This document shows positions 1 to 5,073 of a stretch of 5,073 nt of DNA, piece by piece. Below the pieces are notes generated by a model. That model saw only the letters and a list, made by a program, of their open reading frames with translations. It was not told the DNA's origin and searched no databases. Made by a program: the position numbers and the translations under genes. Numbering within the stretch: the stretch's first letter is position 1; every line of letters starts with the position of its first letter. Source of the DNA: a virus (Duplodnaviria; Heunggongvirae; Uroviricota; Caudoviricetes). The stretch lies in the IMG/VR virus record IMGVR_UViG_2585427755_000008, positions 1 to 5,073 of that record; one strand, 5' to 3'.

Positions 1-45
1 ATAAAACCGGGTGATGCAAAAGTAGCCATTTGATTCACAAGGCCA

Positions 46-74
46 TTGACGCATCGCCCGGTTAGTTTTAACCT
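46..74 (+). promoter_or_regulatory. Possible sigma70 promoter for the tRNA-Thr gene (TTGACG -35 at 46-51, 17-nt spacer, TAACCT -10 at 69-74)
   Basis: Seen in sequence: a consensus-like TTGACG hexamer followed 17 nt later by TAACCT, then a GC-rich stretch (TGTCCACCG) about 40 nt upstream of the mature tRNA 5' end. The -10 is weak, so this is motif-based inference only. Confidence 0.2.
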
Positions 75-114
75 TGTCCACCGTGATTCACGTTCGTGAA
101 CATGTCCTTTCAGG

Positions 115-190
115 GCCGATATAGCTCAGTTGGTAGAGCAGCGCATTCGTAATGCGAAGGTCGTAGGTTCGACTCCTATTATCGGCACCA
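115..190 (+). tRNA. thrW: tRNA-Thr, anticodon CGU
   Basis: Cloverleaf folded by hand: acceptor 5' GCCGATA (115-121) pairs with TATCGGC (180-186); D-arm GCTC/AGTTGGTA/GAGC (124-139); anticodon loop TTCGTAA with anticodon CGT at 148-150; T-arm GTAGG/TTCGACT/CCTAT (163-179); discriminator A187; encoded CCA at 188-190. Length 76 nt. It matches my memory of enterobacterial thrW, the attachment site of phage P22. Confidence 0.9.
145..190. other. Probable attL core (tRNA 3' portion shared between host attB and phage attP)
   Basis: Inference: the integrase stop codon is only 15 nt beyond the tRNA 3' end, so the recombination core must lie in the 3' part of the tRNA. From memory, P22 uses a core of about 46 bp running from the anticodon loop to the CCA end of thrW; the exact limits cannot be set without the attR end. 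Confidence 0.4.
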
Positions 191-204
191 TTTAAATCAA
201 TAAG

Positions 205-1368
205 TTACACATCATTAGTACCTTCCTTATTTTTTGACTGGGACAAATTTGGGACCGATGGGTTCAGGATCGAGTCTATTTGCCGTGCGTGTTCGGTAAG
301 GTGATTAGGTGCAAGGTGAGCATATCGACGAACCATTTCGATAGACTCCCAGCCTCCCATTTCCTGTAACACTGACAACGGGACTCCGGCTTGAACCAGC
401 CAACTTGCCCACGTGTGTCTCAAGTCGTGAAATCTGAAATCATCAATACCAGCCCGTCTCAGCGCCGCTTTCCAGGCTGTGTTTGCGTCATACCGCATCT
501 TCCTTACTGTTGGCGCTTTCGTTCCGTCTGGTTTGGTACAGCTTTCCTTGTACACAAATACCCAACGGTGATGATTCCCGATTTGTTTTTTCAAAACGCG
601 ACATGCAGTATCATTCAGCGCAACGCCGATTGCGCGGTTTGATTTACTCTCTTCCGGGTTTATCCATGCCACCCGGCGCTGCATATCTATTTGTTGCCAT
701 TCAAGGTTGATGATGTTCGAGCGTCTTAAGCCTGTTGCCAGTGCAAATTCAACAACAGACTTTAATGGCTCCGGACATTCATCAATCAGCCTTTGTGCTT
801 CATGGGGCTCCAGCCAGCGGATCCGTTTATTCTTTGGTTGAGGCACTTTAATAATTGGTGCCTTATCCAGCATTTTCCATTCACGCTCTGCGGCTCTTAG
901 TAGGGCCTTTATAAATGAAAGATGCGTAGCCTTCGTTGCAACGGACGCTGGTTTTGGCGTGTATTCTGGAACAGGTTTCCCTTTTTTTCTGCATGCTTCT
1001 GCCCTGAGTTTCCAGTTTTCCTCATGACGCCGGTTCGTCATTTTCTGCATTGCTGAATAAATTTTTGATTCAGTAATGTCTCTTAGTTGCATTCCTGCGA
1101 AATGTTGAAGCCAGAATCCGATCCGGCTTTTGTCATCGTCCAGTGATTTTTTATGTGCTTTCTCTTCAAGCCACCTGACACACGCTTCCTCGAACGTTAT
1201 ATCAGGTATTTCACCAAGTTTGCTGACCCGCCATGCTTCAGCCTTTAGCTTGTCATGGAGTTCTGTCGCCTGCCTTTTGTCCTTTGTTCCAAGAGACTGT
1301 TTAAATCTTTTACCGTTCGGCAATGTGAAACTGGCGTACCATATTTCACCTCTGCGGAAGAGTGACAT
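205..1368 (-). CDS. int: Tyrosine site-specific integrase (lambda/P22 Int family), 387 aa
   Basis: ATG at 1368..1366 preceded by GAGGAAAG; TAA stop at 207..205. C-terminal catalytic signature HDLRHTWAS (H-x-x-R) and [15 protein letters not shown] (catalytic Tyr). The N-terminus [46 protein letters not shown] closely matches my memory of P22 Int, and the length agrees (387 aa). Confidence 0.95.
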
Positions 1369-1595
1369 TTTCTTTCCTCTGTTATGCCATCACCCGCGCT
1401 CACCTGGACAGTATGCAGCGGAGACTGAAGAGCCGCAATGCAGGCTTGTCGTGTTGTGAGGTAAGGAGATTTATTCTTAGTGGGATCTTTGCGTGTTGCC
1501 TGAAGACGCCCTGTGCGTATCCAGTTAATGGCAGTCGGTCTGGATATCTTGAGAAAATGACAGGCCTCATCGAGTGTGAGGCTGTATGGCTCCAT
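1245..1595 (-). CDS. xis: Excisionase (Xis, winged-helix/AlpA-like DNA-binding), 116 aa
   Basis: ATG at 1595..1593 with SD GAGGTG 5 nt upstream; the N-terminus [31 protein letters not shown] is a typical excisionase HTH/wing. Its 3' end overlaps the int start by 124 nt in another frame. The longer 144-aa form in the ORF track (from 1679) has no comparable RBS and overlaps the upstream gene. Confidence 0.8.
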
Positions 1596-1900
1596 TATTT
1601 CACCTCTTGCTGTGACATTGTTGAAAAATGGATACCAGCTCGTTGCTGCCAGACGATCCAACCGAGAGTCATATCCCATGCCATGTATTCGTTATCGTCG
1701 TTTTTTGCTCTCCGACGATCTACTAAGTCACCGAAACGCTTTTCCATGAATAATTCATAAGCTTCGCGTTCATCTGGTTCTACTTCCAGAGATAGGAGTG
1801 CGATTTCATAAGCACGGCGCTCAATATCGTCTCGCACGTCAAGGCTGCTGATACGCTCTTTAATTTCTTTAATCAGTTCTTTGTCGGTAAAAGTGGTCAT
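1595..1900 (-). CDS. Hypothetical acidic early-left (ea-region) protein, 101 aa
   Basis: ATG at 1900..1898 preceded by AAGGAG with a 6-nt spacer; TAA stop at 1597..1595 overlaps the xis ATG (TAATG). The protein is highly charged and acidic with predicted helical character. No family recognised. Confidence 0.7.
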   Translation of the reverse strand: MTTFTDKELIKEIKERISSLDVRDDIERRAYEIALLSLEVEPDEREAYELFMEKRFGDLVDRRRAKNDDNEYMAWDMTLGWIVWQQRAGIHFSTMSQQEVK

Positions 1901-1910
1901 GTGTTACTCC

Positions 1911-2174
1911 TTAACCCGCAGTGCTTTCAACTGACGAGGGGAACAAAATCTTTTCATCAAATCCGGCATTCATATCATGGACAGCAACACACCAATCCAT
2001 TGACGAACGATTATCAAGAGCCTCCATGATTTCATCCATGCGGCGTAGGTCATACAGGTAAATATTTTTATCGCCAATGGTGTAAAAACCAATTTTTTTC
2101 GGTGATGGACAGCGATCAATAACGTCCTGTAATTCGTTCAACCATGCCTGTTCTTTTTTTGTCAAAGTTGCCAT
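1911..2174 (-). CDS. Hypothetical phage protein, 87 aa
   Basis: ATG at 2174..2172 preceded by AAGGAAAA. The ORF-track version (117 aa) starts at a TTG at 2264 and would overlap the upstream gene, so I prefer the internal ATG. The TAA stop at 1913..1911 is embedded in the SD of the next gene. No family recognised. Confidence 0.65.
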   Translation of the reverse strand: MATLTKKEQAWLNELQDVIDRCPSPKKIGFYTIGDKNIYLYDLRRMDEIMEALDNRSSMDWCVAVHDMNAGFDEKILFPSSVESTAG

Positions 2175-2175
2175 A

Positions 2176-2394
2176 TCAGTTTTCCTTATACGGATTAATT
2201 TTATTGTGCAGTGTGTTGAACGACGCCCATACCACGTCGTTATACAATTCAATAACTGGCTCAATTATTTTCCCGATTGCCCAGACAAAAATTAGCGGGG
2301 ATATCGGTATCATCAACACGATAAACAGAATGAGAAACAGGAATTCTGTCGTTCTACTCTTTCGCGGATATTCTTTTCTGAATAATGTCGGCAC
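2176..2394 (-). CDS. Small predicted single-pass membrane protein, 72 aa (GTG start)
   Basis: GTG at 2394..2392 preceded by a strong AAGGAG with a 6-nt spacer. Basic N-terminus (RKEYPRKSR) followed by a hydrophobic stretch of about 24 residues (FLFLILFIVLMIPISPLIFVWAIG). TGA stop at 2178..2176 sits 1 nt from the next ATG. A non-ATG start and short length lower the confidence. Confidence 0.55.
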   Translation of the reverse strand: MPTLFRKEYPRKSRTTEFLFLILFIVLMIPISPLIFVWAIGKIIEPVIELYNDVVWASFNTLHNKINPYKEN

Positions 2395-2395
2395 A

Positions 2396-2728
2396 TCACT
2401 CTCCTTTGATGCGAATGCCAGCGACGCGTAGTGCGTGTTCTAAGTCAATCAGGCAAAGCCAACTGCCATTTTCTTTAGGTATCATGACATGTCGCTTATC
2501 AGCATTTATTGGGTGCCCATATCGAAGGTCGTAGCGAGTCGGTAATTGAACTTCCCTCGCTTCCAGTTCTGTAATGCGTTTGTTTTTAGCTTCTAGTTCA
2601 TCCAGCAGCGCCAGCACAACCTGCGGTGTGACTTTCATACGAAATGCCAGCAATTTTTGTGGTGTGGCTACTATTTTTATTGCTTCTGCCGCCTCACGCA
2701 GTGCCTGATAGTTAATTTTGGTTGTCAT
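2396..2728 (-). CDS. Hypothetical ea-region protein, 110 aa (N-terminus reminiscent of Ead/Ea22-like prophage proteins)
   Basis: ATG at 2728..2726 preceded by GAGGTGG and overlapping the upstream stop (ATGA). The N-terminal motif YQALREAAEA...TPQ and the helical segment LDELEAKNKRITELEAREV resemble, from memory only, the N-terminal regions of Ead/Ea22-like proteins; this is unverified. Confidence 0.7.
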   Translation of the reverse strand: MTTKINYQALREAAEAIKIVATPQKLLAFRMKVTPQVVLALLDELEAKNKRITELEAREVQLPTRYDLRYGHPINADKRHVMIPKENGSWLCLIDLEHALRVAGIRIKGE

Positions 2729-3603
2729 GCCACCACCTCTTCGAATTTCAACTCCAATTGATCACCCCAGATTTCACATGACTCTGAACACGAGCCGGTA
2801 TCGAATCGCCTGGCTTGCACCATCGCCTGATACAAATTTCTGTAGTCGCTGTCGGCATACATTCTGGCAATCCCGTCAAGACTCAGATGACCACGGTACA
2901 TAACGTCTTTATCTGTCTTTCGGTGACCATCCCGGACGTGTTTACCTGTAACCAGCTCATTAAAAACTCTCATCAGACCAGGTTCGTCTTTACATGCAAG
3001 CCCCAGCTTTTGCGTGGACTTTTTGATGCAGAAAACACAGTTCCCGAGGTGCTCCGGGATTTGCAAATCAAAAGGTTGTTTATGCCACCACCGGATAACA
3101 TCCGACTTATCAAAATCAGATAGCTCGGCAAGATACCGGACGCCTGATTTCGGTTTCAGCCTACGAGGTTCGTCTGCACGAATACCCAGCCATGTGATGT
3201 AATTCCCTCGTCCGAAATGGTCATCGCAGTATTTTGTGAAGGGGGTGAGTTTTAATCTGTCAGTGCAGAACGCGCCGCCGATGTATGGCGTGCCATATTT
3301 TTTTACCATGTCCATAAACGGTTTAAGCACCGGCATTCGCGTCTGAATATCCTTTGGTTCCCATTCCGTATAACCATTTGGCTGCCCAAGCTCTGGATTT
3401 ATATCGACCTGCAACACAGTTAGCGGTATGCCCCAGAACTTCACAACCTCCCGAATAAAGCGGTATGTCAGCGGATGTTCGCAACCGGTATCCATAAAGA
3501 TGTAGCAGACGTTATTACCAGCCTTTCTTTGTTCTTCCATCAGGTGAACAAGATATGCAGATGTTCTCCCGCCAGAAAAACTAACTACATGAGTTATGCA
3601 CAT
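2725..3603 (-). CDS. PAPS-reductase-like PP-loop ATP pyrophosphatase family protein, 292 aa
   Basis: ATG at 3603..3601 overlaps the end of the upstream HD gene by 10 nt. N-terminal PP-loop-type motif VVSFSGGRTSAYL (SGGxxS variant of SGGxDS) at residues 6-18. Cysteine motifs CVFC (residues 189-192) and CSESC (272-276). The length and motif placement are typical of phage-encoded PAPS reductase / DndC-like proteins. Confidence 0.85.
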   Translation of the reverse strand: MCITHVVSFSGGRTSAYLVHLMEEQRKAGNNVCYIFMDTGCEHPLTYRFIREVVKFWGIPLTVLQVDINPELGQPNGYTEWEPKDIQTRMPVLKPFMDMVKKYGTPYIGGAFCTDRLKLTPFTKYCDDHFGRGNYITWLGIRADEPRRLKPKSGVRYLAELSDFDKSDVIRWWHKQPFDLQIPEHLGNCVFCIKKSTQKLGLACKDEPGLMRVFNELVTGKHVRDGHRKTDKDVMYRGHLSLDGIARMYADSDYRNLYQAMVQARRFDTGSCSESCEIWGDQLELKFEEVVA

Positions 3604-4130
3604 TTGCGTAATTCCGATAACTCGTTGAAGCGTGCCATAAACATCCCGTAGGCATGGCCCGGTGCCAGTGGAATCACGTTGAACATCTCTGTTGCCGGGA
3701 TGCCTTCTAGTACAGGCCAGAAAGAGCCATCATCAAGCCCGAGATCGCGGCGTTCGGTTGCCAGCATGATGAGATCGGCATATTTCACGGGTGTACTCAT
3801 AACCGGGGGTAACCCGTATTTCTCACGGATTACGGCGTCTATTTTTTCTTCCATCCGTTTATAGTCAGGAAGAAGGCGTTTCAGTGGAGCGGGAATATCC
3901 TGGCAATACGCTTCTGTTGCATCATGCATTAACGCTTCAAAAGCAAATTCCTGCGGCACCAGCTGGCTGCAAAGCACCGCATGCTGGGCGACACTGTAGA
4001 AGTGTGAAAGATGTCCTGCAAAGCGACAGATATTTGAAAGGGAAACCGCGATATCGTTAATAACGATGTCGTCTTTATTTATCTTGTCATAATAAAAATG
4101 CTTCCCGGAAAAAGTTTTAATAAATGACAT
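3594..4130 (-). CDS. HD-domain phosphohydrolase, YfbR-like 5'-deoxynucleotidase family, 178 aa
   Basis: ATG at 4130..4128 preceded by GGAG with a 6-nt spacer; the ORF-track start at 4157 is a GTG with no SD. HD signature: an H in HFYSVAQHAV and the HD pair plus downstream D in ALMHDATEAYCQDIPAPLK, which closely parallels the E. coli YfbR segment MYHDASEVLTGDLPTPVK as I remember it. Confidence 0.85.
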   Translation of the reverse strand: MSFIKTFSGKHFYYDKINKDDIVINDIAVSLSNICRFAGHLSHFYSVAQHAVLCSQLVPQEFAFEALMHDATEAYCQDIPAPLKRLLPDYKRMEEKIDAVIREKYGLPPVMSTPVKYADLIMLATERRDLGLDDGSFWPVLEGIPATEMFNVIPLAPGHAYGMFMARFNELSELRKCA

Positions 4131-4223
4131 TTTGTTCTCCACGTATATGCGCTGCACCGCGCTGAATTCTGGTAAAAGGAAGCCCTCACCATCCGGCGAT
4201 TATTGAGTAAATTATGTTTCCAT

Positions 4224-4245
4224 AAATGCCCCCGCAGGGGCATTT
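4224..4245 (-). terminator. Putative intrinsic terminator/attenuator hairpin (9-bp stem, 4-nt loop)
   Basis: Perfect inverted repeat AAATGCCCC-CGCA-GGGGCATTT. On the - strand transcript it lies 12 nt after the DUF2303-like stop (4258) and is followed by AUUUAUGG, a weak U-tract. It sits between two co-directional genes of the early-left operon. Confidence 0.4.
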
Positions 4246-4257
4246 GCAGTAATGAAA

Positions 4258-5073
4258 TCAGGCGGTGAAAGTACCAATAAAGGTTTCTACTTTGCTGTCT
4301 TTAAATTTCTCAACAAGCAGATCACGAAATTCGTTAGCCATTTCTTCCTGCACCGCTTCCAGCTGAATAATGCGCAGAACCAGTACAGGACGATCGCCAG
4401 TGATAATGCTGAGGCGTAATTTAAACGGACGTTCTTTCAGGCCTTCAAACGGAACGCATTTAAATTCAAATGCCACTGGCATAATGTCTTTGGTCTTCGC
4501 TTCGACAGACTCCATCAGGGAGCGTTTGCCGCTGAAGTCATTGTCTTCAAAATCAGCGGTCTGGTTCGCTTCAATTGTGATTTTACGGATCGCCGCAGCC
4601 GCTTTGGTTGCCTGAATGGCGTCACCATTAGCATCAAAGCCCACAAGGTAGTCGGCCCAGTCTTCAATCCATTCTGCCAGTGACTTTTGGGAGTTACGCT
4701 CGCCATTAACAGACAACAGAGCAGAGAACGGTGCTGTCTTTTTCAGTTTGAGAGTGGCGGTGTTATCTGCGTGACCTGGTTCATCAATAGTACCCAGGTT
4801 AAGCACACTGACGGCACGCATATTATCGGCATCGATAAAGCAGCGGGTGCCTTCATCTGCAAGATCTTTAGAATAACGGGTAAAGTCATCGATGCTGGCA
4901 GTGGAAAGCGCACCACGGAAACGGAAGCGATTTAAATTAAATTTTTCCAGATCATGAATGCGGAAATTCTCAGGCAATGCCACAGCATCGGCACCAATCT
5001 TACTGATAATTTCATTAACACCCTGAGCAGAAATAAGGGCATGGATTTGATTAATTGCGGTTGCGTCTAAGTT
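4258..5073 (-). CDS. Conserved prophage protein, possibly DUF2303/YfdQ-like; 5' end lies beyond the window (at least 271 aa)
   Basis: TGA stop at 4260..4258. The reading frame stays open on the - strand all the way to position 5073, upstream of the GTG at 4983 that the ORF track used as a start, so the true start is outside the window. Family assignment is from memory of the size and genomic context of YfdQ-like proteins and is unverified. Confidence 0.7.

Follow-up and report, generated by a model that had tools for sequence, protein, structure and literature searches.

A NinC-family protein with a conserved cysteine triad in an SfV-like prophage: a candidate iron-sulfur PP-loop enzyme acting on DNA

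The window examined here, a 5,073-nucleotide stretch of DNA (IMG/VR record IMGVR_UViG_2585427755_000008, positions 1 to 5,073), is the left end of an SfV/CPS-53-like Escherichia coli prophage, and all of its genes lie on the minus strand. One of them is an open reading frame (ORF) for a 292-amino acid (aa) protein that, by full-length similarity, is an ortholog of NinC of phage lambda and that carries, besides an N-terminal PP-loop, several cysteines conserved throughout its family. Our leading interpretation, put forward tentatively and with a confidence that stops a little short of even, is that NinC-family proteins are iron-sulfur (Fe-S)-dependent PP-loop enzymes that would act on DNA by inserting sulfur, as an early counter-defence, and would not serve sulfate assimilation. 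The NinC-like gene itself is common; what we newly hypothesize is the link between this lambda gene, a cysteine triad at an Fe-S ligand position, and escape from phosphorothioate-based immunity.

Conserved Cysteines of the NinC Family

An initial annotation of this stretch had drawn attention to two cysteine motifs, CVFC (residues 189-192) and CSESC (residues 272-276), accompanying an N-terminal PP-loop, and translation finds all three in place: the interval 2776-3039 on the minus strand encodes residues 189-276, with CVFC at its start and CSESC at its end. With 10 cysteines in 292 aa (3.4%), we estimate that about 0.3 CxxC motifs would occur by chance in one such sequence (289 x 0.034^2). As far as alignments can tell, it is the conservation of the cysteines, not the mere presence of a CxxC, that lifts these motifs above chance.

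Conservation was evaluated in a close set of 114 homologs, at least 52% identical to the query, and in a diverse set of 116 full-length representatives of 50%-identity clusters, 28-50% identical to the query. The latter was obtained from an exhaustive HMMER profile search that returned 3280 matches at E<=0.001, 392 of them at <=1e-30. In the close set, C113, C126, C189 and C192 are conserved at 100%, C272 at 98% and C276 at 99%. In the diverse set, C113, C189 and C192 remain at 100%, C272 is found in 96% and C276 in 98% of the sequences, C126 in only 34%, and C2, C33, C41 and C204 show no conservation. The four motif cysteines singled out by the initial annotation are thereby confirmed as conserved across the 116 cluster representatives. 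In a further alignment of 80 sequences with a mean column identity of 20% (A3), 33 columns are conserved at 90% or more and 5 of these 33 are cysteine columns, for a family cysteine content of 2.6% (binomial P ~0.001).

By alignment, the family is characterized by an invariant triad, C113 plus C189-x-x-C192, and by a near-invariant C-terminal pair, C272-x-x-x-C276. C113, the third invariant cysteine, lies outside the interval considered by the initial annotation and provides the best-supported link to an Fe-S ligand position. Around the C-terminal pair, E274, S275 and E277 are conserved in closer homologs, and the AlphaFold model has a predicted local distance difference test score (pLDDT) of ~82 falling to 67 at CSESC.

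An Ortholog of Lambda NinC

Lambda NinC, the nin-region ORF-290, shares 78.7% aa identity with the window protein over residues 2-292 (tblastn), and the match to PHROG 424 (E 2e-93) covers residues 5-291, a full-length similarity that places the protein in the lambda NinC family, an identity absent from the initial annotation. Both the Pfam cut-off and the core fold place it in the PAPS_reduct superfamily (PF01507, PP-loop ATP pyrophosphatases), with a match of E 4.3e-9 that spans only positions 2-66 of the 175 of the profile. Within the branch of PP-loop ATP pyrophosphatases that includes 3'-phosphoadenosine 5'-phosphosulfate (PAPS) reductase, DndC and SspD, NinC forms a distinct clade. The two orthologs are alike in length and motifs and differ in position: the window gene sits in the leftward early arm with yfdR-like and ea22-like genes on either side, whereas lambda ninC is flanked by ninB and ninD in the rightward nin region. 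The ratio of nonsynonymous to synonymous substitution rates (dN/dS) against lambda ninC is 0.044, with dS saturated, and the gene is under strong purifying selection. No function has been assigned to NinC in the literature that could be searched.

Comparison with APS and PAPS Reductases

The NinC family was compared with an alignment of six reductases (A2) that includes the Pseudomonas aeruginosa adenosine 5'-phosphosulfate (APS) reductase, recovered from Protein Data Bank (PDB) alignments. The PP-loop SFSGGRTS aligns to the PP-loop region of APS and PAPS reductases, and GIRADE of NinC aligns to GLRREQ of PAPS reductase. Alignment of A3 to A2 with hhalign (probability 96%, E 4.4e-9, NinC residues 7-146) sets C113-T-D-R-L-K118-L-T-P121 opposite Y-N-D-I-N-K-V-E-P of E. 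coli CysH, which in A2 corresponds to C139-C140-G-I-R-K144-I-E-P147 of P. aeruginosa APS reductase. Cys139, Cys140, Cys228 and Cys231 are the ligands of the [4Fe-4S] cluster of this enzyme (2goy); cysteines at positions 139, 228 and 256 were confirmed in the recovered sequence. Together, the hhalign register and A2 place C113 at the cluster-ligand position of Cys139, with a threonine of NinC as the equivalent of Cys140.

The CxxC can be placed less firmly. In NinC, G-N-C189-x-x-C192 follows the next helix and P-F-D-L, and the order in the reductase is alike (P-Y-N-S-L ... S-I-G-C228-E-P-C231-T). Alignment of the C-terminal segments by hhalign, with CxxC against Cys228/Cys231, was not significant (E 0.73), a point that weighs against an Fe-S enzyme along with those gathered below. 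An hhalign comparison with the single 2goy sequence aligned only 55 columns, addition of the APS reductase by MAFFT --add gave an unreliable alignment, and a global hhalign run had an inconsistent register in the CxxC region, with zero confidence. The suggested equivalence of the CxxC with Cys228/Cys231 is therefore one of motif order only. Measured against the CC...CxxC signature of Fe-S type APS reductases, NinC would thus offer C113 for the first cysteine and a threonine for the second, followed by a CxxC in the expected order but outside any significant alignment.

Beyond these motifs, NinC departs from the P. aeruginosa enzyme (CysH, 2goy) by an insertion at residues 68-93, by some 130 unrelated C-terminal residues, for which no reductase structure was matched, and by the absence of the ECGLH tail. 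The last two differences bear on the current database annotation, which would make NinC an auxiliary metabolic gene encoding a CysH-type APS/PAPS reductase that boosts sulfate assimilation during infection. The Pfam PAPS_reduct match and the PHROG category "auxiliary metabolic gene" speak for it, but that match is confined to the N-terminal portion of the profile, the score for the CysH-type model NCBIfam PRK02090 is 20.3 bits, with a cut-off of 154, and the catalytic cysteine motif ECG[LI]H, invariant in the six aligned reductases, does not occur in the 292-aa sequence, which has CSESCE instead. We consider such a metabolic role highly improbable, in agreement with the initial annotation, which had doubted a simple sulfate-assimilation reductase.

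Among solved structures, the best match of the diverse family profile is PDB 21fy chain C, "PptA" (270 aa, E 1.2e-6), which shares with the NinC family a degenerate PP-loop and the motifs ACTTQLK and NNCVGCVKG. It is very divergent from NinC, with nothing aligned beyond residue 227, and was not among the structural matches returned; neither a publication nor a stated function for PptA was found in the literature searched. Foldseek searches of the PDB and BFVD returned only the PP-loop core and other NinC-family phage proteins.

The triad, as the set of cysteines retained throughout the family, would suit a [4Fe-4S] cluster that is held by three cysteines and has one iron open, of the type found in TtuA, NcsA and [4Fe-4S]-LarE. 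The main alternative is a structural zinc site, formed for example by C189, C192, C272 and C276. C113 would then be catalytic or structural, and the PP-loop would serve a sulfur-free chemistry of the kind known from QueC, TilS and amidotransferases, such as adenylating or amidating a DNA base or some other substrate. The combination of a CxxC with a second, distant pair of cysteines is common in zinc sites; QueC, which carries a Cys4 zinc site, is one of the PP-loop relatives among the structural matches; and the C-terminal pair can be lost, as expected of a stabilizing element. Nevertheless, C113 aligns to the Fe-S ligand position of APS reductase, and what the whole family keeps is the C113/C189/C192 triad, not a set of four cysteines. 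Furthermore, the closest functional relatives, SspD, DndC and BrxP, are the sulfur-inserting components of DNA phosphorothioation, and DndC is a [4Fe-4S] protein that needs C280 for its cluster. Balancing these observations, we find the zinc-based explanation unlikely, and the NinC-like protein probably holds an Fe-S cluster.

Relationship to Defence-System and tRNA-Thiolating Enzymes

The initial annotation had compared the protein with DndC-like DNA phosphorothioation proteins and with TtcA-type transfer RNA (tRNA) thiolation enzymes, and membership in either group is not borne out. The nearest PADLOC profile is that of SspD (E 1.5e-15), which matches protein residues 5-152 over only positions 2-125 of its 277, followed by weaker matches to BrxP and DndC. 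The DndC profiles reach E 9e-4 and 2e-3 (15-16 bits), in the N-terminal part only, and there is no NCBIfam DndC match. The neighbors are phage early genes, and no dnd or ssp partner gene was found among them in the 29 kb examined. At the level of profiles, NinC is homologous to SspD but is no member of such a system. Its homology to DndC, SspD and BrxP is restricted to the N-terminal PP-loop domain, with DNA modification or defence as the shared theme. Unlike the DndC and SspD systems, NinC is not accompanied by neighboring genes for a desulfurase, an ATPase (DndD, SspC) or a DNA-binding partner (DndE, SspB), and it is found on phages and plasmids, whereas DndC, SspD and BrxP are found in defence islands.

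An Fe-S-dependent tRNA thiolase akin to TtcA or TtuA, reprogramming host or phage tRNA, would account for the PP-loop and cysteines in another way. This possibility appears very unlikely: Pfam gives no match to ATP_bind_3 (PF01171), which also sets aside the TtcA, TtuA and NcsA types as family assignments, and the structural likeness is at the superfamily level only, with ~155-160 residues of the generic PP-loop core superposed. In addition, the fusion partners of the family are DNA methyltransferases, not RNA-binding domains, and the published phenotype described below concerns a defence based on DNA modification.

Links to DNA Methyltransferases and to Escape from Dnd

Several homologs associate the NinC module with adenine methylation of DNA. 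Fusions of the complete module with a phage-type Dam (PF05869) have the Dam at the N-terminus in two family representatives (P0121 and P0123) and at the C-terminus in six others (P0084, P0097, P0114, P0122, P0126 and P0151), while P0133 is fused to a D12-class adenine methyltransferase (PF02086). These amount to at least three independent NinC-methyltransferase architectures. Salmonella phage Oslo has a Dam gene that is separate from ninC but overlaps it by 4 bp, and in Acinetobacter MOBF conjugative plasmids an orphan N-6 methylase lies 1.2 kb downstream of the homolog.

One of these fusions has been part of a genetic experiment. When p0018 of Vibrio phage 44E38.1, which encodes a PAPS-Dam fusion, was moved together with p0019 into a Dnd-sensitive sister phage, the recombinants escaped the Dnd defence of the host and reached 1e11 plaque-forming units (PFU)/ml on a Dnd+ host without the retron (Piel et al., bioRxiv 10.1101/2021.05.05.442762). 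The p0018 protein corresponds to P0097; a complete NinC module makes up its first 280 residues, shares 55% identity with the window protein and keeps the PP-loop and all six cysteines that close relatives conserve (C113, C126, C189, C192, C272 and C276). It differs from the window protein, which stands alone, by its C-terminal Dam fusion and by having been tested together with p0019. The methyltransferase fusions and adjacency, along with the anti-Dnd phenotype of a cassette carrying this homolog, point to DNA rather than metabolism as the target, which upholds the proposal of the initial annotation that a phage copy would serve nucleic-acid modification.

The same phenotype could also arise if NinC were a non-catalytic or semi-catalytic mimic of DndC or SspD, binding and blocking or hijacking the DndDE or DndFGH proteins of the host. 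The homology of its N-terminal domain to DndC and SspD and the lack of DndD- or DndE-like partners of its own would suit a mimic. Against it, the strict conservation of the PP-loop, K118, R142, D144, E145 and R148 in clusters of 28-50% identity speaks for catalysis, the methyltransferase fusions suggest direct action on DNA, and the family occurs in many hosts and elements irrespective of Dnd. We regard mimicry as quite improbable, more so than the zinc site.

Proposed Mechanism and Its Limits

In the Fe-S-dependent mechanism that we favor, the C113/C189/C192 triad would ligate a [4Fe-4S] cluster in the same place as in APS reductase, and the flexible C-terminal CSESC would either contribute the fourth ligand or act as a persulfide relay, with sulfur supplied by a cysteine desulfurase of the host such as IscS. 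ATP would be spent on adenylating a position of the DNA, which could be a base carbonyl or, as has been proposed for DndC and SspD, a phosphate of the backbone, and the activated position would then be replaced by sulfur in a DndC- or SspD-like chemistry. Phage or plasmid DNA marked in this manner early after entry could escape phosphorothioate-dependent (Dnd-type) or similar restriction. The metal cluster, the sulfur chemistry, action of the stand-alone form on DNA and the defence targeted in E. coli are all inferred from the comparisons given above.

Several observations weigh against this mechanism. The CxxxC pair is missing from some sublineages, namely the 257-aa Acinetobacter plasmid homologs, which end before it and keep C113 and the CxxC, and a variant with a DUF551 tail. 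K-12, the usual host of lambda, is not known to have a Dnd system. The known phosphorothioation pathways need DndD/DndE or SspB/SspC, and lambda and the window prophage have neither equivalents of these proteins nor a methyltransferase partner; no methyltransferase was annotated near the window gene in the 29 kb examined. Finally, the anti-Dnd transfer moved two genes including a methylase fusion, and the PAPS module may not be responsible for the phenotype by itself.

A bolder version of the model, which we consider doubtful, would make NinC a self-sufficient, single-polypeptide enzyme of DNA sulfur modification, producing a phosphorothioate or a thio-base with sulfur from host IscS and without DndD/E or SspB/C. 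By deploying it immediately after entry, phages and conjugative plasmids would forge or overwrite a "self" mark and so evade defences that sense phosphorothioates, and related ones, with fused or adjacent adenine methyltransferases giving DNA targeting in some lineages. If the triad does hold an Fe-S cluster and NinC writes sulfur or another mark on incoming DNA, this would supply a mechanism for the one published anti-Dnd phenotype and define a new class of counter-defence enzyme. It would also offer a minimal model of DNA phosphorothioation, whose chemistry is poorly understood, and correct the routine "PAPS reductase/auxiliary metabolic gene" annotation in phage and virome studies.

Distribution of the Family

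About 390 clusters (50% identity) match at E<=1e-30 and come from temperate and virulent phages, Stx-converting phages, phage-plasmids and Acinetobacter conjugative plasmids; the 90% cluster of the window protein alone has 817 member sequences. In the copies examined, placement is always in early regions. Those at least 92% identical have yfdR and yfdQ as neighbors in the leftward arm, which in Stx2a phages is downstream of gam, recT, exo and ssb, and those about 79% identical lie between ninB and ninD. A related-locus search with alignment A1 retrieved close enterobacterial relatives only.

Matches are present in 141 Acinetobacter plasmid records. In the conjugative (MOBF/MPF_F) Acinetobacter baumannii plasmid NZ_CP027243.1 (L088, 5983-6756), the homolog lies near parAB, and the co-directional block to which it belongs also contains genes for an H-NS-like protein, a thermonuclease and an orphan N-6 DNA methylase. 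In many of the family representatives P0124-P0198, the profile match is split in two by an insertion of ~50 residues that follows profile position 150 and directly precedes the strand corresponding to residues 155-157. In the DUF551 variant (P0023, 294 aa, 20 contigs), this domain takes the place of the residues after ~229, and C272 and C276 are gone; some Stx2a phages keep a mere remnant matching residues 239-292 (H110-H112). The P0023 variant and the Stx2a remnants point to recombination breakpoints within the gene.

The Prophage Locus

The coordinates of the features of the window are given in Table 1. The NinC-like gene overlaps both of its neighbors: its start overlaps the stop of yfdR by 10 nt (sequence ATGTGCATAA), and its stop overlaps the start of the Ea22-like gene (ATGA). 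It therefore belongs to the early leftward operon, and the gene context bears out the early-operon placement advanced by the initial annotation.

Table 1. Genes, motifs and mosaic block of the window, in order of position (positions are those of the 5,073-nt stretch).
Feature	Position	Strand	Remarks
tRNA-Thr(CGT)	115-190	-	
Integrase	205-1368	-	
Excisionase-like helix-turn-helix (HTH) protein	1245-1679	-	Longest ORF
Mosaic block carrying the NinC-like gene, 1.7 kb	1901-3595		SfV blastn comparison
Two small ORFs	Between the excisionase-like and Ead/Ea22-like genes	-	
Ead/Ea22-like protein, downstream neighbor	2396-2728	-	Pfam PF13935, E 7.3e-12
NinC-like ORF, 292 aa	2725-3603	-	PAPS-reductase-superfamily PP-loop protein
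CxxxC motif, C272-S-E-S-C276-E277	2773-2790	-	C272 96-98%, C276 98-99% conserved
CxxC motif, G187-N188-C189-V-F-C192-I-K-K195	3019-3045	-	G187, N188, C189, C192, K195 100% conserved
G140-I-R142-A-D144-E145-P-R-R148, follows strand beta-4	3160-3186	-	G140, R142, D144, R148 100%, E145 99% conserved
C113-T-D-R-L-K118-L-T-P121, proposed first Fe-S ligand and substrate-phosphate lysine	3241-3267	-	C113, K118 100% conserved
PP-loop SFSGGRTS, residues 8-15, ATP pyrophosphatase signature	3559-3582	-	S10, G11, G12, T14, S15 90-98% conserved
YfdR-like HD-domain 5'-deoxynucleotidase, upstream neighbor, same operon	3594-4157	-	PHROG 318, E 2.8e-111; RefSeq yfdR
DUF2303/YfdQ protein	4258-4983	-	

Compared by blastn, SfV matches the window at 145-1900 (99.3%) and at 3596-5073 (97.4%), with nothing between. 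At the corresponding position SfV has the 363-bp orf29, and the boundaries are sharp, with flanks 97-99% identical. SfIV, like SfV, has both flanks and lacks window positions 1901-3595. The NinC-like gene is therefore part of a mosaic block, which also contains two small ORFs, a DUF4014 ORF and the Ead/Ea22-like gene.

The longest excisionase-like ORF overlaps the integrase ORF by ~120 nt. RefSeq has a shorter HTH protein that starts just past the integrase gene, so the true start of xis is probably internal to the longest ORF. Finally, the genes for the YfdR-like and YfdQ proteins, immediately upstream of the NinC-like gene, are retained next to most of its close copies in IMG/VR (at least 92% identical), with one or the other detected in 54 of the 80 loci.

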